From the sequence record NC_055780.1: a stretch of 64,000 bases of DNA. One strand, given 5' to 3'. A model generated the notes under the pieces. The model was given only the letters and a program-made list of their open reading frames with translations, was not told the origin of the DNA and searched no databases. Below are positions 5,727-35,822 of the stretch, in pieces (position 1 is the first letter of the stretch; every line of letters starts with the position of its first letter). Source of the DNA: Escherichia phage MLF4. The translations under genes and the position numbers were made by a program.

Positions 5727-8700
5727 TTATTCAACCCATTCAAATTTAACAGTTTTATTCACTGGGTCAGGAATAATGCGAACATTACCAATTCGTAAGA
5801 AATCACGAATAGTAAGATTACCCATTGTAGCATTATCAGATGGTAAAGCACCGATATCAGACGGTTGAGGAGGGTTACCTCCATCAAATACCTGAACAAA
5901 ACTTGACCAAGAATTTTTGGTTTTCTGCCATGTGCGGGTCCAACGAGTGGTACGCGCTTCTGGAGTTGTTGGATAAGTAATCCAATCTTGGTAAAGCGAA
6001 TCAAGTGTATTACCAAACTGAGTCAGTGTACCAGGAGATTTAACTTCTTCGCCACGTTCTAAGTATGGAAGTCCAGTCACTTCATTAGTTTTTTCAACCA
6101 TTTTAAAATAACCCGGGAATTGGTTATAAGTAGCTGAATCATTAATATCGATTGACCAGAATCCTACAGTATCAGATGTTGGTGCACGGGTGTATAAATC
6201 AGATGTTTTAGTACCCTGAGAACGAATTCTCGAGTTAACAGTCAAACCGCCTGAATTTATAGTAGCACCTTTGGCAATGATTAAGCTTTCACCAATTGTG
6301 ACTTGACCTGATTGATTATTAATTGATAATGGACGTAATCCATTAAATCCGCCAGTCTGATCACCGGATGCAGTAAGCATAAAATTCGTTACTGATCCAT
6401 CATTGCGAACAATGAAACCATAATTTCCGTTAATAGCACGGAAAGCATTTGCGCTTCGAGAAATAATTTCACCAGTTGCAGTGACTGAATTACCAAATGT
6501 TGCTACGCCATTTGCATTCAATGTTCCTGAAGCATTAACATTTATCGGTGTTACTGTACCGTTGATATTAAATGTTATATTTCCAGCTTTATTGCGCTGA
6601 GAATAAAAATGACTAGATGTTTCATCACTAACTTCAAATACGGTAGAACGTGTTGTATCTAATTCCCCACTAAATTGATTTCCCCACACTCTAACAGTCA
6701 TCGTTTGGGCTGGGTTTGTTCCAGTTTGAGGTCCTTTCTCAAAAATCAATCGAGTTGCTGTTCCAGTATTAGAAATCGTTAGTACACTATTTGCTGTAAC
6801 TGAACCACCAAACGTAGCAGTACTAGATGATACAAGAGGGGCACTCAGATTCGTTTGTTGGGTTAAGGTTAGTGAACCATTAACCGTCTGCGCAATGTCC
6901 CTACGAATGAACTGAGATGAATCTAGACCATCCAATAAATTACTATCTGCAGCTTTTGCTTTTAATGGCAAATAATTTGCTAATACACGGTTTAATTCGT
7001 ATGGTGATACTGCATAGCTATTTTTCTCATACAGTTCTAAATCTTGGGTAGAACCGACTGTATCATTACCGACAAATGTAATTGAACCAGATGAAGTTTT
7101 AACAAAACCTCTTATCGCAGTAGTAGCTGCCCAGGTAGGTTCACTCTGTACAATCCATTTTAAATTTTTTGGAGATACAGCAGTGTTCGCTGACGTTCCA
7201 GCCACAGTTTCAGACTGAGTTGCAACTTTAATAACACCTTCTTGTGATTCGGTAGATTTAGTACCTAAAAGCTTTTTAGGAGTTATTAAAACATTATCTA
7301 ATTTTCCAGCAGCAGCTTCAACTTGTGTAGCCACACGAAGTGTACCACGTTGTGTCTCATTTGCTTCAAGAATATTAAGGGTATAATGGTCCCAGAGAGT
7401 TCCTGATTCAACTAATCCAGATAGAGCAACAACAGAAGTACGATCAGTACTATTAAATCTAGTTTTAATTTTTAATGGTGTAGAGATACGAGTATCGTCG
7501 ACGCCTGCGTCGAATTCAACTTGTGTAGCAATTTCAGCTATACCACTTAAACTTTCAGTTGCTCTACGGTCATTTAAAGTTTTAGGAGTGACTGCACGAG
7601 TATAATCAGTTCCTGTATTAACTTCACTTTGAGTAGCAATTTCAATTAAACCAATTCTTCCATCAGTTGATGTCTTTTTATGTAACGTTTCTGGCGTTAC
7701 AACCGCATTTGCCCATCCTTCTTGACTTTGTCCAGCAATTACTTCACTTTCAACTGCTAAAATTACCGCACCTTGTTGTGTTGGAGTAGCTTTATACTGA
7801 TCCAAGGCTTTAGGTGAAACAACTAAGTTATTAGTGTTTTTATTATAAACATTCGTACCATTTAATTCACGGCTAGAAGCCGGAGTAGCACCTGCAGTAG
7901 ATACAAAAGTTACAATACCAGATAATGATTCAGAACCTTGGCGAGCTTGAAGCTTTTTAGGAGTAATGATTGTAGTATCATCAGTACCTGTATTAGTTTC
8001 CTGTTGCGTAGCAATTTCTGCGACACCTCTGCGAGTTTCTGTAGCAGTTCTTTCATTCAACTTTTTAGGAGTGATGATAAGGTCATCTGCAAAAGAGAAT
8101 GTGGTATCCTGGTTTACTTGCGCAGTTGTTGCTATTCTTGCAATACCTCTACGAGTTTCTGTAGCAGTACGATTAGCTAACGTTTCTGGAGTAATTGCCA
8201 ATTCTTTTTGTGGAGAATTTTCTAAATCTGCATTAGCTTGAGCCTGTGTAGCTAATGCAATTACACCTAATCTTGCTCTAGTAGAATTATTTAAAGAGTC
8301 TACTCTTTCTACAGTTGAAACGTTTTGCTGTACAACCCAATATTTTCCATCGGAATCTTCGATATAAGCAAGCTGTAAAACTGGAACATAATTGGTTTCG
8401 CCATTAAAAACTAATTCTTGAACAGTCACCCATTTAGTTTCAGGCGGGTATTCTGAACGTTTTGGAAATTGCAACAATTGAACTGAAGAAGCAATTTTAT
8501 CTTCACCGGCAGCTTTGATTTTAACTGTTTGTCCTTTTCTCATGTAATTCATGGAAATCTTAACAGTATCACCGATAGAAATATCAGTTGGAAGCTGAAG
8601 TTCAATCGTTTGAGTTGTTCCATTATTCGCGCCAAATACCATGACTTCTTCATTTGGACGGATGTTTGAATTAGTTGTTATAATGCGTAAACGTGCTTTA

Positions 8701-28195: not shown

Positions 28196-28444
28196 ATGAT
28201 TAAACAATTACAACACGCTCTTGAACTGCAACGAAACGCATGGAATAATGGTCACGAAAACTATGGCGCATCTATTGATGTTGAAGCCGAAGCTCTTGAA
28301 ATCCTGTGTTATTTCAAACATCTGAATCCTGCTCAAACTGCATTAGTTGCTGAGCTTCAGGAAAAAGATGAACTTAAATATGCTAAGCCTCTGGCTTCTG
28401 CTGCACGAAAAGCAGTTCGTCACTTTGTGGTAACACTGAAGTAA
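28196..28444 (+). CDS. rIII: rIII lysis-inhibition accessory protein
   Basis: 82 aa ORF (same size as T4 RIII) next to gene 31. Confidence 0.75.
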   Translation: MIKQLQHALELQRNAWNNGHENYGASIDVEAEALEILCYFKHLNPAQTALVAELQEKDELKYAKPLASAARKAVRHFVVTLK

Positions 28445-28689
28445 TTTATTGGAGATTCACTGCCTTAGTGTGAGCTAAAATCGAGGAGCCGTCGAACTGT
28501 CTGATTAATGATTTGCGAATCATTATAGTTTTAAGACCCCGGCAGTTTTATGGTGTACCTCTTGAATGTGAATGATGACGGGTTTATGGTTATCCTGGTC
28601 GTTAAATACCCAAAAACCTATGTTCCCCTTGAGGGCTTGCGCAGGCAATGCCAATAAGTCCTGCATTTTCATTTAAAAGAGAATTTATA

Positions 28690-28866
28690 ATGGCAAAACA
28701 AGCTAAAGCAAAGAAAGCAGTTGAAAAGAAAGTTGGTGATTCTAAACGCGCTGGTTACAAGCGTGGGTCGAACTCTCGTATCAATCAAACTGTTGAGAAG
28801 ATCATGCGCCGAGCACGTGCGGTTCTTCGAGATGATGCTTCTCGTTTTGGTAAGCAGAAAGCATAA
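28690..28866 (+). CDS. Hypothetical small lysine/arginine-rich basic protein
   Basis: 58 aa from ATG at 28690 (MAKQAKAKKAVEKK...); an alternative upstream ATG at 28648 exists; strong terminator directly downstream. Confidence 0.5.
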   Translation: MAKQAKAKKAVEKKVGDSKRAGYKRGSNSRINQTVEKIMRRARAVLRDDASRFGKQKA

Positions 28867-28871
28867 GTTGA

Positions 28872-28896
28872 GGACTCCTTCGGGAGTCCTTTTTTA
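28872..28896 (+). terminator. Intrinsic terminator
   Basis: GGACTCC-TTCG-GGAGTCC followed by TTTTTT. Confidence 0.75.
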
Positions 28897-28919
28897 TTTT
28901 CCAAAGATTGCATAAAGTT

Positions 28920-28949
28920 GTTTACAGTATAGCTCCTTTGTGATAGTAT
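28920..28949 (+). promoter_or_regulatory. Early-type promoter (GTTTACA ... TAGTAT) with inverted repeat around -10
   Basis: GTTTACA, 17 nt, TAGTAT; CTCCTTTGTG ... CACAAACAAAGGAG inverted repeat; followed by GGAGAATAAAATG start context. Confidence 0.5.
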
Positions 28950-28976
28950 TATCTTACACAAACAAAGGAGAATAAA

Positions 28977-29309
28977 ATGAAAACGATTAATCTGAACGCT
29001 GCAGTTAAAACTAAATGCTTCAATGGTAAATATGATGAAACTATGTGGTTCTTAATGGCAGTTGAAGGTGATATTGTTGAAGTAGAAACAACAGAAGGTA
29101 TGGGAACAGATTTCACCTTTACAATTCAAGTTCATAATTTCTTTACTGGTTGGATTTATGAATTGAATACAGTAATCGTTGGAAAAATTGAACAAAATGA
29201 ATTAGGTGAATGGTATTATGTTACAGCTCGCCAACGTGCCGAACGCTTAATTGAGAAGATGAAAAAAGTTAGTAAACTTGACATGCAGCATTGGAAAGTA
29301 GTAAAATAA
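28977..29309 (+). CDS. Hypothetical protein (30.x cluster)
   Basis: 110 aa ORF. Confidence 0.55.
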   Translation: MKTINLNAAVKTKCFNGKYDETMWFLMAVEGDIVEVETTEGMGTDFTFTIQVHNFFTGWIYELNTVIVGKIEQNELGEWYYVTARQRAERLIEKMKKVSKLDMQHWKVVK

Positions 29310-29311
29310 TT

Positions 29312-29340
29312 GTTTACTTTGGTACAGGATATGATATTAT
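29312..29340 (+). promoter_or_regulatory. Early-type promoter with stem-loop (GGTACAGG / CCTGTACC) around the -10 box
   Basis: GTTTACT, 16-nt spacer, TATTAT; 8-bp perfect inverted repeat flanking the -10. Confidence 0.5.
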
Positions 29341-29376
29341 ATACCTGTACCGCAATTAAACATCTTGGAGAATAAA

Positions 29377-29742
29377 ATGAACTACATCAATTTTGAACGT
29401 AAATATGTTTCTAATTGTATTGCAGGTTCTATTGATACTATTTGCCTTTGGAAACATCAAAATGGATCAGTATGCGAAATTGAGCAGTATATGACTCCTA
29501 ATTACGTTTATATGCGATTTGAAAATGGAATCACGGTTTCAATCACAATGGAAGGTTCAAACTTCAAAATCGCTCTGGATGATGATTTTCGTCAACGTGA
29601 TTTAGGGACTCATCCTTGCTGGAATGGTGCTAATCGCAAGCTTTTGGTTAAAACTTGGATTCGTCATATTCTGAGTAACAGAGCTAAACCTGAGCATCTT
29701 GAAGCAATCTTTGATGTAGTTCTTAACGAATTTGATATTTAA
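29377..29742 (+). CDS. Hypothetical protein (30.x cluster)
   Basis: 121 aa from ATG at 29377 with RBS GGAG; hairpin GGGGCTTTGGCCCC downstream. Confidence 0.55.
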   Translation: MNYINFERKYVSNCIAGSIDTICLWKHQNGSVCEIEQYMTPNYVYMRFENGITVSITMEGSNFKIALDDDFRQRDLGTHPCWNGANRKLLVKTWIRHILSNRAKPEHLEAIFDVVLNEFDI

Positions 29743-29783
29743 AATAAAATGAGGGGCTTTGGCCCCTTACTGAGGAAAATGTT

Positions 29784-30071
29784 ATGTTTATGACTACTTA
29801 TTTTGATACCCGTAAAAACTTCTGCGAAGTAGTTTTCTCAAAGTCGCCTAAAGACCTTCCTGCACATTTGCAACCTACTAGCGAATCGATTAAAAACTAC
29901 GTTGATGTGGTTTGTCCTTTAGAGTTTCGTACTGTAAATGGGCGTGATACTTTAGCTATCGCTAAACTTAATCGTGAAATTGACATTGACCCTTCAATTG
30001 CGCGTGAAATTAATATTTCTGATATTGGCGGCGGTAATGTTAAATCGCATGGTTTTCAGATGAGGTTCTAA
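29784..30071 (+). CDS. Hypothetical protein (30.x cluster)
   Basis: 95 aa ORF, RBS GAGGA. Confidence 0.5.
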   Translation: MFMTTYFDTRKNFCEVVFSKSPKDLPAHLQPTSESIKNYVDVVCPLEFRTVNGRDTLAIAKLNREIDIDPSIAREINISDIGGGNVKSHGFQMRF

Positions 30072-30268
30072 TGAAATTCTTTTTAGGTCAAACTGTTGAA
30101 TTAAAGGGAGTTGGTATACCTGGATTAATTTCTAAGGTTCTACCTCCATTTAAATGGAGTGGTGTTCAAATAAAAGAGGCTTATATTGTTTCCTGGGTAG
30201 ATGGAAATGAAGACCTTCGTATGGGTGATGAATTGTCTCCTATTTACGGATTAAAGGAATTAGTATGA
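30071..30268 (+). CDS. Hypothetical small protein
   Basis: 65 aa ORF, translationally coupled. Confidence 0.45.
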   Translation: MKFFLGQTVELKGVGIPGLISKVLPPFKWSGVQIKEAYIVSWVDGNEDLRMGDELSPIYGLKELV

Positions 30269-30471
30269 ATATAATTAATAAGATTTTTGGAATTCAGTAC
30301 ATTAAGGTCACATATAAAGTAACAGATAAAAATCCATATACTGATGAACATGAAGAACCACAAGTTGAGTCTATTATATTAGAAAAGGACCCTAACTGGC
30401 CAGTTGAATTTCGTCTTCCTTGCTATGGTCATTGGGCTGATGTTGAAATTATAAGTATTGAAAATGTCTGA
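30265..30471 (+). CDS. Hypothetical small protein
   Basis: 68 aa ORF, translationally coupled. Confidence 0.45.
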   Translation: MNIINKIFGIQYIKVTYKVTDKNPYTDEHEEPQVESIILEKDPNWPVEFRLPCYGHWADVEIISIENV

Positions 30472-30922
30472 GTTAGAGATTAGAAGCAATTTTAGATGGC
30501 CATCGTGTGCATTAAGTAATTTCGCCCAATGGCCTTTCGTCATGGATGGTATTCAATTCGGAGGTCTTGAAGGATTCCTCCAAGGATGCAAGGTGAAAAA
30601 TGTTGAACAACAAAAACGTATATTTGGGCTCTCCGGCTTGGCCGCCCAGCAAAGTGGAAGAGCTTATGCAAGAGCTGCGGACCGTGGGACGCTTTTCTGG
30701 CTTGGAATTCCCTTTTCAAGATACTCTGCAGCATGGAAAGAGTTGTATACAAATGCATATTTTGAAGCAGCGATTCAAAACAAGGGGTTTCGTGATGCCT
30801 TACAAGCCTCTAAAGGAAAAATTTTGAAGCATAGCATGGCTAGTGGTCTAACAAAAGATGATACAATACTAACCGAAGCTGAATTTATTGATGTGTTAAA
30901 CCTATTAAGAGACTCTCTATGA
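30464..30922 (+). CDS. NADAR / YbiA-like (DUF1768) protein, putative ADP-ribose or N-glycoside processing enzyme
   Basis: 152 aa from ATG at 30464; motif SNFAQWPFVMDGIQFGGLEGFLQGCK parallels the YbiA/NADAR core SNFAxWP..DG....SEHYFQAxK; locally elevated GC content. Confidence 0.6.
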   Translation: MSELEIRSNFRWPSCALSNFAQWPFVMDGIQFGGLEGFLQGCKVKNVEQQKRIFGLSGLAAQQSGRAYARAADRGTLFWLGIPFSRYSAAWKELYTNAYFEAAIQNKGFRDALQASKGKILKHSMASGLTKDDTILTEAEFIDVLNLLRDSL

Positions 30923-31761
30923 AGCCTACTATTTTGACTGATATTGACGGGGTGTGTTTAAGCTGGCAATCGGGCCTTCCTTATTTTGCCCAAAAATATA
31001 ATCTTCCGTTGGAACATATTTTAAAAATGATTCAGGACGAAAAATTTATTTCTCCTGGTAAGCTCTTTAATTGCGATGAAGAACTTGGTGTTAAATTAAT
31101 CGAAAAGTATAATCGTTCAGATTTTATTCGCTATTTGTCTCCATATAAAGATGCCCTGTGTGTAATTAACAAATTAAAAGAAGATTATAATTTTGTAGCT
31201 GTTACAGCACTGGGTGATTCTATTGACGCTCTGCTGAATCGTCAATTTAATTTGAATGCTCTTTTTCCTGGTGCCTTCTTAGAAGTATTGATGTGTGGTC
31301 ATGATTCTTCAAAAGAAGAGTTGTTCAAAAAGGCAAAAGAGAAATATAACGTAATTTGTTATATTGACGATCTCGCTCACCACTGCGATCATGCGAGTGA
31401 AATATTAAATGTTCCTGTTTATTGGATGGCTCGAGGGGAGCGTGACAGTATTCCAAAAACTGCACAGCGAGTTTATACATGGAATGATGTAGAGAATAAG
31501 CTTTTTCCATCGAATGAAAATAAAGAAAGTTTTGATAGTGAAAAAGCTATAAAAGATGTAATTGAAAAGATGATTAAAAACGATTCTTTTCGTTGGAATA
31601 CTACCTGGAGAACTCCTGGATTAAATCCATACCATCCATATTATACACATCCATATCATGTGCATCCATTTCATACATGGAACTATATTAAACCTGGTGG
31701 CATAGAGTATTTGTATAATAGACCTACTAGTGGTGATAATATTTTACAAGGAGCATTCTAA
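30919..31761 (+). CDS. HAD-superfamily phosphatase / 5'(3')-nucleotidase-like protein with His/Pro/Tyr-rich C-terminal tail
   Basis: N-terminal DIDGV motif (HAD motif I); C-terminal NPYHPYYTHPYHVHPFHTWNY repeat-like tract. Confidence 0.55.
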   Translation: MKPTILTDIDGVCLSWQSGLPYFAQKYNLPLEHILKMIQDEKFISPGKLFNCDEELGVKLIEKYNRSDFIRYLSPYKDALCVINKLKEDYNFVAVTALGDSIDALLNRQFNLNALFPGAFLEVLMCGHDSSKEELFKKAKEKYNVICYIDDLAHHCDHASEILNVPVYWMARGERDSIPKTAQRVYTWNDVENKLFPSNENKESFDSEKAIKDVIEKMIKNDSFRWNTTWRTPGLNPYHPYYTHPYHVHPFHTWNYIKPGGIEYLYNRPTSGDNILQGAF

Positions 31762-32030
31762 TGTTTGTTGTTCATACTATTTATGAAAATGAAGGTAATA
31801 CTACACGTGATTACGGTCACGTAAATCAATTTTTTAGATGCAATCCAGAATTCCGAGCTCAAAAAGACGAACGAATTTTTAAAAAATGTGTAGAGCAAGG
31901 TTTCATTTACGTCAAGCACTGGATGCAAGGAAATAAAGTTAGAACCACGTACCACAGGTCTTTGACTGAGCTTAATGATGAATTGATTTATAATAGAGCT
32001 GTAAACCAAACTCTAAAGGATGAACAATGA
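31761..32030 (+). CDS. Hypothetical protein
   Basis: 89 aa ORF upstream of ligase. Confidence 0.5.
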   Translation: MFVVHTIYENEGNTTRDYGHVNQFFRCNPEFRAQKDERIFKKCVEQGFIYVKHWMQGNKVRTTYHRSLTELNDELIYNRAVNQTLKDEQ

Positions 32031-33490
32031 TTCTTAAAATTCTGAATGAAATAGCATCTATTGGTTCAACTAAGCAAAAGCAAGCAATTCTTGAAAAGAA
32101 TAAAGATAATGAATTGCTCAAACGAGTATATCGTCTGACTTATTCTCGTGGGTTACAGTATTATATCAAGAAATGGCCTAAACCTGGTATTGCTACCCAG
32201 AGTTTTGGAATGTTGACTCTTACCGATATGCTTGACTTCATTGAATTCACATTAGCTACTCGGAAATTGACTGGAAATGCGGCAATTGAGGAATTAACTG
32301 GATATATTACTGACGGTAAAAAAGATGATGTTGAAGTTTTGCGTCGGGTGATGATGCGAGACCTTGAATGCGGTGCATCAGTATCTATTGCAAACAAAGT
32401 TTGGCCAGGTTTAATTCCTGAACAACCTCAAATGCTGGCAAGTTCTTATGATGAAAAAGGCATTAATAAGAATATCAAATTTCCAGCCTTTGCCCAATTA
32501 AAAGCTGATGGAGCTCGGTGCTTTGCTGAAGTCAGAGGTGATGAATTAGATGATGTTCGTCTTTTATCACGAGCTGGTAATGAATATCTAGGATTAGATC
32601 TTCTCAAGGAAGAGTTAATCAAAATGACTGCAGAAGCTCGCCAGATTCATCCAGAAGGTGTGTTAATTGATGGCGAATTGGTATACCATGAGCAAGTTGA
32701 AAAGGAGCCAGAAGGCCTAGATTTTCTTTTTGATGCTTATCCTGAAATTAGTAAAGCTAAAGAATTCGCCGAAGTAGCTGAATCACGTACTACTTCTAAT
32801 GGAATCGCTAATAAATCTTTAAAGGGAACTATTTCAGAAAAAGAAGCTCAATGCATGAAGTTTCAGGTCTGGGATTATGTTCCGTTGGTAGAAATATACG
32901 GTCTTCCGGCGTTTCGTTTAAAATATGATGTACGTTTTTCTAAACTAGAACAAATGACATCAGGCTATGATAAAGTAATTTTAATTGAAAACCAGATAGT
33001 AAATAACCTAGATGAAGCTAAGGTAATTTATAAAAAGTATATTGACCAAGGTCTTGAAGGTATTATTCTTAAAAATATCGATGGATTATGGGAAAATGCT
33101 CGTTCAAAAAATCTTTATAAATTTAAAGAAGTAATTGATGTTGATTTAAAAATTGTAGGAATTTATCCTCACCGTAAAGACCCTACTAAAGCAGGTGGTT
33201 TCATTCTTGAATCAGAGTGTGGAAAAATTAAAGTAAATGCTGGTTCAGGCTTAAAAGATAAAGCCGGCGTAAAATCACATGAACTTGACCGTACTCGCAT
33301 TATGGAAAACCAAAATTATTATATTGGAAAAATTCTAGAGTGCGAATGCAACGGCTGGGTAAAATTAGATGGACGTACTGATTACGTTAAGCTATTTCTT
33401 CCAATTGCAATTCGTTTACGTGAAGATAAAACTAAAGCTAATACGTTCGAAGATGTATTTGGCGATTTTCATGAGGTAACTGGTTTATGA
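32027..33490 (+). CDS. 30: ATP-dependent DNA ligase
   Basis: 487 aa (same as T4 ligase); adenylation motif KADGAR; synteny with rIII and alt. Confidence 0.92.
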   Translation: MILKILNEIASIGSTKQKQAILEKNKDNELLKRVYRLTYSRGLQYYIKKWPKPGIATQSFGMLTLTDMLDFIEFTLATRKLTGNAAIEELTGYITDGKKDDVEVLRRVMMRDLECGASVSIANKVWPGLIPEQPQMLASSYDEKGINKNIKFPAFAQLKADGARCFAEVRGDELDDVRLLSRAGNEYLGLDLLKEELIKMTAEARQIHPEGVLIDGELVYHEQVEKEPEGLDFLFDAYPEISKAKEFAEVAESRTTSNGIANKSLKGTISEKEAQCMKFQVWDYVPLVEIYGLPAFRLKYDVRFSKLEQMTSGYDKVILIENQIVNNLDEAKVIYKKYIDQGLEGIILKNIDGLWENARSKNLYKFKEVIDVDLKIVGIYPHRKDPTKAGGFILESECGKIKVNAGSGLKDKAGVKSHELDRTRIMENQNYYIGKILECECNGWVKLDGRTDYVKLFLPIAIRLREDKTKANTFEDVFGDFHEVTGL

Positions 33491-33672
33491 AAGCTTACTT
33501 AGAAACAATTGTCGTGGCTCAAAAAGAAGGTGGAGATGTTTCCACTGCGGTATCGCAGGTTATTCTTGAATTCCCAGATAAACTAGCATATGATGAATTC
33601 ACGGAAAGATTTGATCCATATGAAAAAGGTCCAAAGTTTGAAGTATATCGTACTCTTTTAGCTCTCTATTAA
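33487..33672 (+). CDS. Hypothetical small protein (alt.1-like)
   Basis: 61 aa ORF followed by terminator hairpin. Confidence 0.5.
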   Translation: MKAYLETIVVAQKEGGDVSTAVSQVILEFPDKLAYDEFTERFDPYEKGPKFEVYRTLLALY

Positions 33673-33674
33673 TT

Positions 33675-33698
33675 AAAGGCCTTCGGGCCTTTAATTTT
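33675..33698 (+). terminator. Intrinsic terminator
   Basis: AAAGGCC-TTCG-GGCCTTT followed by a T-rich tract. Confidence 0.65.
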
Positions 33699-33728
33699 AT
33701 AAATAGAATAAACACTAGAGAGGATAAC

Positions 33729-35822
33729 ATGGAACTTATTACAGAATTATTTGACGAAGATACTACTCTTCCGATTACAAACTTAAATCCAAAGAAGAAA
33801 ATACCACAAATTTTTTCAGTTCATGTTGATGATGCAATTGAACAACCAGGCTTTCGTTTATGTACCTATACATCTGGAGGTGATACTAATCGCGATTTAA
33901 AGATGGGCGATAAAATGATGCATATTGTTCCTTTTACATTAACTGCTAAAGGCTCAATTGCTAAATTAAAAGGTCTTGGTCCAAGCCCAATTAATTATAT
34001 CAATTCAGTTTTTACTGTTGCAATGCAAACGATGCGTCAATATAAAATTGATGCCTGCATGCTTCGTATTCTTAAGTCTAAAACTGCTGGCCAAGCTCGA
34101 CAAATTCAAGTTATTGCTGATAGACTTATCCGTAGTCGTTCAGGTGGCAGATACGTCCTTCTTAAGGAACTCTGGGATTACGATAAAAAGTATGCATATA
34201 TTCTTATACATCGCAAAAATGTATCATTAGAAGACATTCCAGGAGTTCCAGAAATTAGCACTGAACTCTTTACTAAAGTTGAATCGAAGGTCGGTGATGT
34301 TTATATCAATAAAGATACTGGAGCTCAAGTAACTAAAAATGAGGCAATTGCAGCATCTATTGCGCAAGAAAATGATAAACGTTCTGACCAAGCTGTAATC
34401 GTTAAAGTTAAAATTTCCCGTAGAGCAATTGCGCAAAGTCAATCGTTAGAGTCTTCTAGATTTGAAAGTGAATTATTCCAGAAGTATGAATCTACTGCAG
34501 CTAATTTCAATAAACCTGCTACCGCTCCTTTAATTCCCGAAGCAGAAGAAATGAAGCTTGGAATTAATTCATTAGCTTCTAAAACAAAGGCAGCAAAAAT
34601 TATTGCCGAAGGAACGGCAGATGAACTTCACTATGATTATAAATTCTTTCCAATGAGTCAAGTCGGTGAAGTTTCAGAAAAAATTAAAGAAGTAATTTTT
34701 AATGCAATTAAAAATGAACCAACTACTTCAATAAAATGTTTAGAGAAATACGCAGCAGCTGTAAATCAATTCTTTGAAGATTATAAAGATAAATGGCTTG
34801 CTAATCATAATAAAAATCGTAAAGGACAATCAGATGAAGTCTGGGAAGAAATAACTAAAAATTCCTGGAACGCAACAAAAACTAAATTCCTCAAACGAAT
34901 GATTTACAGTTTTTCTGGAATTGGTGCTGGTCCAATGATTGATATTACTATTGCACGCGATGGTTCTAAATATACTCCATCACAAAAGCGTGGCATTAGA
35001 GAATATTGCGGTTCAGGATATACTGACATCAATAATCTTCTTTTAGGTCGTTACAATCCAGAACGATACGATGTAATGAGTGAAAAAGAAATTGAATCTG
35101 CTATAAATAACTTAGATTCAGCTTTTGAAAATGGTGACCGTATACCAGAAGGCATTACAGTTTATCGTGCTCAAAGTATGACTGCTCCTATATATGAAGC
35201 GTTAGTTAAAAATAAAGTGTTCTACTTCAGAAATTTTGTATCTACTTCTTTAACTCCTATCATTTTTGGACGTTTTGGAATCACACATGCTGGTATTGGT
35301 CTTTTAGAACCAGAAGCTCGTAATGAATTGACAGTTGATAAAAATGAAGAAGGAATAACTATTAATCCAAACGAAATAAGAGCGTATAAAGAAAATCCTG
35401 AATACGTTAAAGTTCAAATAGGATGGGCAATTGATGGAGCTCATAAAGTTAATGTTGTATATCCAGGAAGTCTCGGAATAGCAACAGAAGCTGAAGTTAT
35501 TCTACCGCGCGGATTGATGGTCAAAGTTAATAAAATAACTGATGCTTCTAATAATGACGGAACAACATCTAATAATACAAAACTCATTCAAGCTGAAGTT
35601 ATGACCACAGAAGAGCTCACCGAATCGGTAATCTATGACGGAGACCATTTAATGGAAACCGGTGAAGTAGTTGCAATGACAGGTGATATTGAAATAGAAG
35701 ACAGAGTTGACTTTGCATCATTTGTTTCATCAAATATTAAACAGAAAGTAGAATCATCTCTTGGAATTATTGCGTCTTGCATAGATATTACAAACATGCC
35801 TTACAAGTTCGTTCAAGGATAA
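33729..35822 (+). CDS. alt: Alt-like ADP-ribosyltransferase, paralog 1 (probably capsid-packaged)
   Basis: 697 aa; C-terminal R-S-E ART signature (TVYRAQ, FVSTSL, EAEVILPRG); N-terminus MELITELFD shared with the adjacent paralog; position next to gene 30 as in T4. Confidence 0.8.
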   Translation: MELITELFDEDTTLPITNLNPKKKIPQIFSVHVDDAIEQPGFRLCTYTSGGDTNRDLKMGDKMMHIVPFTLTAKGSIAKLKGLGPSPINYINSVFTVAMQTMRQYKIDACMLRILKSKTAGQARQIQVIADRLIRSRSGGRYVLLKELWDYDKKYAYILIHRKNVSLEDIPGVPEISTELFTKVESKVGDVYINKDTGAQVTKNEAIAASIAQENDKRSDQAVIVKVKISRRAIAQSQSLESSRFESELFQKYESTAANFNKPATAPLIPEAEEMKLGINSLASKTKAAKIIAEGTADELHYDYKFFPMSQVGEVSEKIKEVIFNAIKNEPTTSIKCLEKYAAAVNQFFEDYKDKWLANHNKNRKGQSDEVWEEITKNSWNATKTKFLKRMIYSFSGIGAGPMIDITIARDGSKYTPSQKRGIREYCGSGYTDINNLLLGRYNPERYDVMSEKEIESAINNLDSAFENGDRIPEGITVYRAQSMTAPIYEALVKNKVFYFRNFVSTSLTPIIFGRFGITHAGIGLLEPEARNELTVDKNEEGITINPNEIRAYKENPEYVKVQIGWAIDGAHKVNVVYPGSLGIATEAEVILPRGLMVKVNKITDASNNDGTTSNNTKLIQAEVMTTEELTESVIYDGDHLMETGEVVAMTGDIEIEDRVDFASFVSSNIKQKVESSLGIIASCIDITNMPYKFVQG

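Follow-up and report, generated by a model that had tools for sequence, protein, structure and literature searches.

INTRODUCTION

Recombinant gp30.3 of phage T4 hydrolyzes guanosine-linked ADP-ribose on DNA and not the thymidine-linked form (Toxins 2024, PMC11125620), and cytidine-ADPr is not removed by this NADAR protein (2026, PMC12945103). The DarTG1 resistance of T-even phages was mapped to gene 30.3, which was renamed adfN (anti-DarT factor NADAR) (Johannesman et al., Nat Commun 2025, PMC11825919). T4 or T2 lacking adfN formed no plaques on DarTG1 cells, and DarT1-modified DNA was freed of ADP-ribose by purified AdfN but not by the E36A variant (PMC11825919). Phage RB69 is DarTG1-sensitive, and its own allele is frameshifted and ends 15 residues early with loss of the terminal helix. 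RB69 was rescued by ectopic adfN-T4, only partially so by the E36A and K43A variants, and an AdfN-T4 construct shortened at the RB69 end point had reduced activity (PMC11825919). An AdfN-DarT1 interaction was not seen in a two-hybrid assay, and DarTG2 was not countered by AdfN (PMC11825919). E. coli was not rescued from DarT1 by T4 gp30.3 (PMC11125620). In uninfected E. coli, AdfN-T4 gives no relief from the toxicity of DarT1, and its protection of non-T-even phages is only partial; an additional T-even factor or substrate feature is therefore needed.

In the bioinformatic classification of the NADAR superfamily by de Souza and Aravind that the functional studies cite, the gp30.3 clade is the phage branch. 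The published phylogeny suggests that adfN was co-opted from a DarG1-like bacterial NADAR (PMC11825919), and a 2022 survey described the T4-like NADAR genes as early genes encoded near ADP-ribosyltransferases (ARTs). In the crystal structure of the Phytophthora nicotianae NADAR (PnNADAR), the contacts to ADP-ribose include the Glu of the SSEQYF motif and a Lys seven positions further on. Published structure-based alignments place H123 of the phage NADARs at the position of the catalytic Glu in YbiA and of Asp in DarG1. YbiA is a housekeeping N-glycosidase encoded in a LexA-controlled operon; it also removes C-ADPr and is an ineffective DarT1 antidote in cells (PMC11125620, PMC12945103).

Here, we analyzed an open reading frame of Escherichia phage MLF4 (NC_055780.1) within a 64,000-nucleotide stretch of its DNA (the window). 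The gene, family, activity, and role are already published, with guanine-ADP-ribose hydrolysis reported in 2024 and the AdfN name and anti-DarTG1 role in 2025. At a probability of about 0.93, we consider the MLF4 ORF to encode an intact AdfN, that is, a minimal, core-only NADAR N-glycosidase that would remove guanine-ADP-ribose and defeat DarTG1.

RESULTS

MLF4 carries an ortholog of T4 gene 30.3

A sequence-only reading of the window had pointed to a 152-aa ORF with a NADAR-like motif at residues 18-43, and both the ORF and the motif were found in the sequence as described (Table 1). The ORF is orthologous to T4 gene 30.3 (now adfN), and the phage that carries it is T4-like (Tequatrovirus). 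When 2.4 kb around adfN was used in a nucleotide search, 731 phage records matched, chiefly T4-like phages of Escherichia and Shigella, and the closest record for this region was Shigella phage ESH35 (99.3%). Gene 30.3 of the T4 reference genome is also 459 nt long. The MLF4 protein and T4 gp30.3 were aligned with zero gaps, with 144 of the 152 residues identical and 150 similar (95% identity). The eight substitutions are located at positions 51, 64, 67, 72, 82, 89, 120, and 125; six are conservative, and none falls on an invariant or near-invariant column of the 90-sequence family alignment. Residues 126-152, which include the C-terminal helix, match the T4 sequence exactly. Judging from these sequences, a functional difference between the MLF4 allele and AdfN-T4 would not be expected.

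Table 1. Features of the MLF4 adfN locus (positions in the window)
Feature	Position	Strand	Remarks
adfN (gene 30.3) coding sequence, 152 aa plus stop	30464..30922	+	ATG 30464, TGA 30920-30922, 459 nt; predicted phage-type NADAR DNA ADP-ribosylglycohydrolase
8-nt overlap of adfN start and gene 30.4 end	30464..30471	+	30.4 stop TGA 30469-30471; T4 arranged likewise
Core NADAR motif, residues 18-43, SNFAQWPFVMDGIQFGGLEGFLQGCK	30515..30592	+	hhalign; includes E36 (30569-30571, GAA) and K43 (30590-30592, AAG)
Embedded ORF in the +1 frame, 75 aa, ATG start (T4 30.3', DUF2883)	30600..30827	+	annotated as internal ORF in T4
H123 codon (CAT), phage-NADAR signature His	30830..30832	+	last beta-strand (predicted strand 120-123, H123 at its end); no variation in either homolog set (90/90, 80/80)
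C-terminal alpha-helix, residues 138-151, intact	30875..30916	+	predicted by AF2 model, high confidence
ATGA overlap of gene 30.2 start and adfN stop	30919..30922	+	30.2 ATG 30919, adfN TGA 30920-30922; T4 arranged likewise
Gene 30.2, 280 aa	30919..31761	+	
First Alt-type ADP-ribosyltransferase gene, 697 aa	33729..35822	+	matches PF03496
Second Alt-type ADP-ribosyltransferase gene, 685 aa	35826..37883	+	matches PF03496
Candidate terminator-like hairpin	28870..28891		upstream of the 30.7-30.1 gene run
Candidate promoter-like site	29278..29307		upstream of the 30.7-30.1 gene run; scores 11/12

The surroundings of the gene were also conserved. In MLF4, adfN sits in a close-packed, same-strand series of small 30.x genes upstream of the DNA ligase gene, with overlapping stop and start codons, and the T-even synteny 30.4 - 30.3 - 30.2 - 30.1 - DNA ligase is present in the window. 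The corresponding run in T4 (30.6, 30.5, 30.4, 30.3, 30.2, 30.1, gene 30 encoding DNA ligase, alt.1, and alt) has the same gene order. The upstream neighbor that shares 8 nt with the adfN start is the 68-aa ORF of gene 30.4, and this overlap is consistent with co-transcription and translational coupling. The ORF downstream, which shares the ATGA, is the 280-aa gene 30.2. A promoter and terminator scan of positions 28300-33800 was uninformative, as 19 promoter-like sites were observed against 19.3 expected; the two candidate sites upstream of the gene run are given in Table 1.

Gene 30.2 is translationally coupled to adfN through the ATGA, and the N-terminus of its protein, MKPTILTDIDGV, resembles the DxDxV motif of HAD phosphatases. 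The protein had no match in Pfam at E <= 0.01, and its sole match was phrog_420 (unknown function). A gene 30.2 adjoining the 30.3 homolog also recurs in several of the divergent loci, namely L016, L031, L040, and L079. A tie between gene 30.2 and the T-even factor required by AdfN would be pure speculation.

At 41.6%, the GC content of adfN exceeded the 36.2% of the entire window (z = 1.67), which placed it in the top 5.9% of 459-nt windows, with ~18 other stretches equally high. The higher local GC that had been noticed from the sequence is thus real and modest. The excess lies largely at codon positions 1 and 2 (0.48 and 0.43) and follows from an Ala/Gly/Arg-rich composition. Among the T-even relatives, the GC content of the gene was ~42% throughout, with flanks at 35-41%; in other lineages, it followed that of the locus. 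As evidence of horizontal acquisition, for which the same reading had seen a hint in the GC content, the excess is too weak to carry the claim.

The MLF4 protein belongs to the NADAR superfamily

In Pfam, the MLF4 protein matched PF08010 (Phage_30_3) over all profile positions (1-138 of 138) with 225 bits (cutoff, 36) and an E value of 3.4e-67, and in PHROGs it matched phrog_652 (unknown function). The direct profile search for NADAR/DUF1768, which had been proposed as a check, did not bear out the assignment: hmmscan of the single protein against Pfam gave no PF08719 (NADAR) match even at E <= 10. There were also zero matches in NCBIfam, and a phmmer search of PDB sequences with this protein as the sole query was empty as well. 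The absence of a direct PF08719 or NCBIfam match is uninformative about remote homology, as the sequence is too divergent for a search of a single sequence against an HMM.

By contrast, searches at the level of the family connected gp30.3 to NADAR. PF08719 was matched individually by 35 of the 90 family members (best E value, 1.5e-7), and several members carry the JGI label YbiA/DUF1768. When the family profile of gp30.3 was searched against PDB sequences, the top match was YbiA (2b3w; E value, 0.014). Comparison by hhalign of the gp30.3 profile with a 34-sequence YbiA-family profile gave 97% probability and an E value of 8.7e-11 over 125 columns. In the AF2 model, fold comparison identified the YbiA fold, consisting of an alpha-helical core and two small flanking beta-sheets. 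The profile-profile comparison, the family-level Pfam matches, and the modeled fold confirm that the MLF4 protein is a member of the NADAR superfamily, as had been read from the motif.

Catalytic residues are conserved, and the E-G motif is the native state of the family

In the hhalign alignment, S18-N19-F20-A21 of the MLF4 protein corresponded to S30-A33 of YbiA, E36 to E48, and K43 to K55. The spacing of seven residues between Glu and Lys, seen in PnNADAR (E43/K50) and YbiA (E48/K55), is also found between E36 and K43. When the family profile was compared with the single 8bau fragment, E36 was placed opposite the Glu of SSEQYF in PnNADAR, in an alignment of 26 columns only with 12% probability. 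E36, G37, K43, and H123 were invariant in all 80 complete homologs from viral contigs, which share 36-95% identity, and E36, K43, and H123 likewise showed no variation in the 90-sequence family alignment (90/90).

The His that follows the catalytic Glu in YbiA is replaced by Gly (G37), and the sequence-only reading had regarded activity as uncertain on this ground. This doubt did not hold. G37 is the family-wide native state (80/80), the Phytophthora NADAR has E-Q at the corresponding position, and T4 gp30.3 has the same E-G yet is active; E-G is therefore no sign of lost activity. The family-specific substitution is not G37 but the His on the last strand, H123, which according to the alignments in the literature replaces the Glu of YbiA and the Asp of DarG1. 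In our hhalign alignment, H123 was paired with YbiA H126 and E125 faced a gap, one residue off the published register (positions 30827-30835, residues 122-124, K-H-S).

These residues also bear on whether the ORF is a decayed remnant that has lost catalysis. The missing direct NADAR match in Pfam and the Gly after the catalytic Glu could be read in this way, and broken alleles are known in other T-even phages (RB69, as well as P0014, P0016, and P0044, which look frameshifted or deleted). The MLF4 ORF, however, has its full length and retains the C-terminal helix; E36, K43, and H123 are present and family-invariant, as is G37; and the T4 protein with the identical motif is active. We assign an inactive remnant an essentially negligible probability.

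The protein might instead act as a metabolic N-glycosidase of the YbiA type, with small molecules such as riboflavin-pathway intermediates or soluble ADP-ribose-derived immune signals, rather than DNA, as substrates. Against this, the near-invariant H49 of YbiA corresponds to G37, no residue is aligned with the invariant E125, and D130/Y132/W133 and G136/G137 of the END-YWGDGG segment are absent. Moreover, the literature reports for the T4 ortholog both guanine-ADPr hydrolysis on DNA and a phenotype specific to DarTG1. We consider a YbiA-type role extremely unlikely.

Two Alt genes downstream and the phage's own ADP-ribosylation

The Alt-type ADP-ribosyltransferase genes of MLF4 are full-length tandem paralogs. 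T4 has a single alt together with alt.-1 and alt.-2, short remnants that its annotation ascribes to an old partial duplication, whereas both copies are intact in MLF4.

The Alt pair had been located about 3 kb from the NADAR gene and combined with it into a writer-plus-eraser scheme. The distance agrees with our result, as the first Alt gene starts 2.8 kb downstream of adfN on the same strand; the functional link found no support, and the ligase gene and three further genes lie in between. In such a scheme, the adfN product would erase the marks of the phage's own ARTs (Alt, the Alt paralog, ModA, and ModB), either ADP-ribosylation or ModB-type RNAylation of host proteins, forming an internal writer/eraser circuit. 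The two Alt-type genes nearby on the same strand would fit this proposal, and we found no published test of the T4 NADAR on ADP-ribosylated protein substrates. Nevertheless, adfN is separated from Alt by 30.2, 30.1, DNA ligase, and alt.1, and for the majority of the divergent homologs, neither an Alt nor a ligase gene was detected within 5 kb. All demonstrated NADAR substrates are N-glycosidic base linkages, and guanine specificity is reported for the T4 enzyme, which leaves thymidine- and cytidine-ADPr uncleaved. DarTG1 also fully accounts for the adfN deletion phenotype. We thus regard an eraser of the phage's own ARTs as very unlikely.

A related proposal concerns a second substrate or partner. 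The change from Glu/Asp to His, together with the T-even dependence, might reflect action on Alt/Mod-made ADP-ribose or NAD-derived RNA adducts, or on guanine-ADPr in glucosyl-hydroxymethylcytosine DNA. If so, AdfN would have a functional link to the neighboring pair of full-length Alt paralogs. We found nothing in support of this proposal, and we consider it a long shot.

Embedded ORF and disrupted alleles

The embedded ORF within adfN matched PF11097 (DUF2883; E value, 3.2e-33) and phrog_14037. It was considered as a second gene and rejected. In 13 T-even-like loci, the embedded frame was 55-77% identical, compared with 83-95% for the 30.3 frame of the same DNA, showing faster divergence. 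Its 76-codon open stretch was kept in 12 of the 13 close relatives and was absent from homologs at 36-46% identity. These sequence comparisons suggest that 30.3' is probably a passenger and not part of the enzyme, and the PF11097 family may be an overlap artifact.

Several homologs had altered frames. P0014 consists of AdfN residues 1-79 and is then frameshifted into the 30.3' frame. In P0016 (phage vB_Eco_NR1), the 30.3' frame comes first and the AdfN frame follows. In P0044 (phage vB_EcoM-RPN226), the N-terminus of gp30.8 is fused to the C-terminus of AdfN, implying a deletion from 30.8 to 30.3. Together with P0008 (phage SV76), they look like natural disrupted adfN alleles or miscalled genes. 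Provided that the disruptions are genuine rather than sequencing errors, sensitivity to DarTG1, as in RB69, would be expected of these phages.

Length variants were also noted. The methods of the Toxins 2024 study give the T4 NADAR construct as "gp30.3; residues 1-208," while the T4 RefSeq gene encodes 152 aa. Metagenomes hold N-terminally extended homologs of ~201 aa (P0030, P0031, and P0036).

DISCUSSION

The orthology of the MLF4 gene, its intactness, its fold, its homology to NADAR, and the conservation of its catalytic residues were established in this analysis. Activity, guanine specificity, and counter-defense in vivo without DarT1 binding were published for the T4 protein (95% identity), from which we infer the same behavior of the MLF4 allele. 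By way of this ortholog, the suggestion made from sequence that the gene may encode an ADP-ribose eraser or a counter to DarT-type DNA toxins gains support.

For the MLF4 protein as an intact AdfN, the following mechanism can be proposed. DarT1, the toxin of the host DarTG1 system, would ADP-ribosylate guanine in replicating phage DNA. AdfN would hydrolyze the guanine-ADP-ribose bond, restoring unmodified DNA and allowing replication to continue. AdfN would act on the product of the toxin, and the toxin itself would not be bound. E36 and K43 of the helix motif E-G-F-L-Q-x-x-K would contact the distal ribose and phosphate of ADP-ribose, and H123 on the last strand would take the place of the third catalytic acid of other NADARs.

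Gene 30.3 of T4 RefSeq NC_000866 (L001; locus 6308-6766) and its orthologs in the nearest GenBank records (H1-H12) are labeled "hypothetical protein." Public annotation is thus behind the 2024-2025 papers, and the MLF4 ORF can be annotated as adfN. A plain Pfam scan yields PF08010 and no NADAR, so automated pipelines miss the function. The intact allele predicts DarTG1 resistance of MLF4, unlike RB69 and the phages with broken alleles, which is relevant to the choice of phages for DarTG1 hosts.

Among the known NADARs, membership in the DarG1 (BC4488-family) antitoxins was rejected, as the N-terminal extension, the last-strand Asp, and an adjoining darT1 are all absent. DarG1 NADARs such as those of Geobacter lovleyi (PDB 8bat; 219 aa, 133 aligned) and E. 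coli C7 have an N-terminal extension, carry Asp in place of the phage His, and are encoded beside darT1. The MLF4 protein is a 152-aa core with His; its gene is flanked by 30.4 and 30.2, with the closest ARTs, of the Alt type (PF03496), 2.8 kb away. DarG1 protects uninfected cells against DarT1, a capacity that AdfN-T4 lacks. Membership in the YbiA subfamily (riboflavin-intermediate N-glycosidases) was also rejected. E. coli YbiA (PDB 2b3w; PF08719) shares ~20% identity, and its E-H after SNFA, its last-strand Glu, and its END-YWGDGG segment are all lacking in gp30.3. The eukaryotic P. nicotianae NADAR (PDB 8bau, ADP-ribose complex; 189 aa) shares 19% identity and has the last-strand Glu and the D130/W133 contacts to ADP-ribose, which gp30.3 does not have. 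AdfN-T4 (T4 gp30.3; PF08010 Phage_30_3), by contrast, resembles the MLF4 protein in its length of 152 aa, in E36/K43/H123, in the C-terminal helix, in the flanking genes, and in the start/stop overlaps; the loci differ in that MLF4 has two full-length Alt paralogs downstream, whereas T4 has one and remnants.
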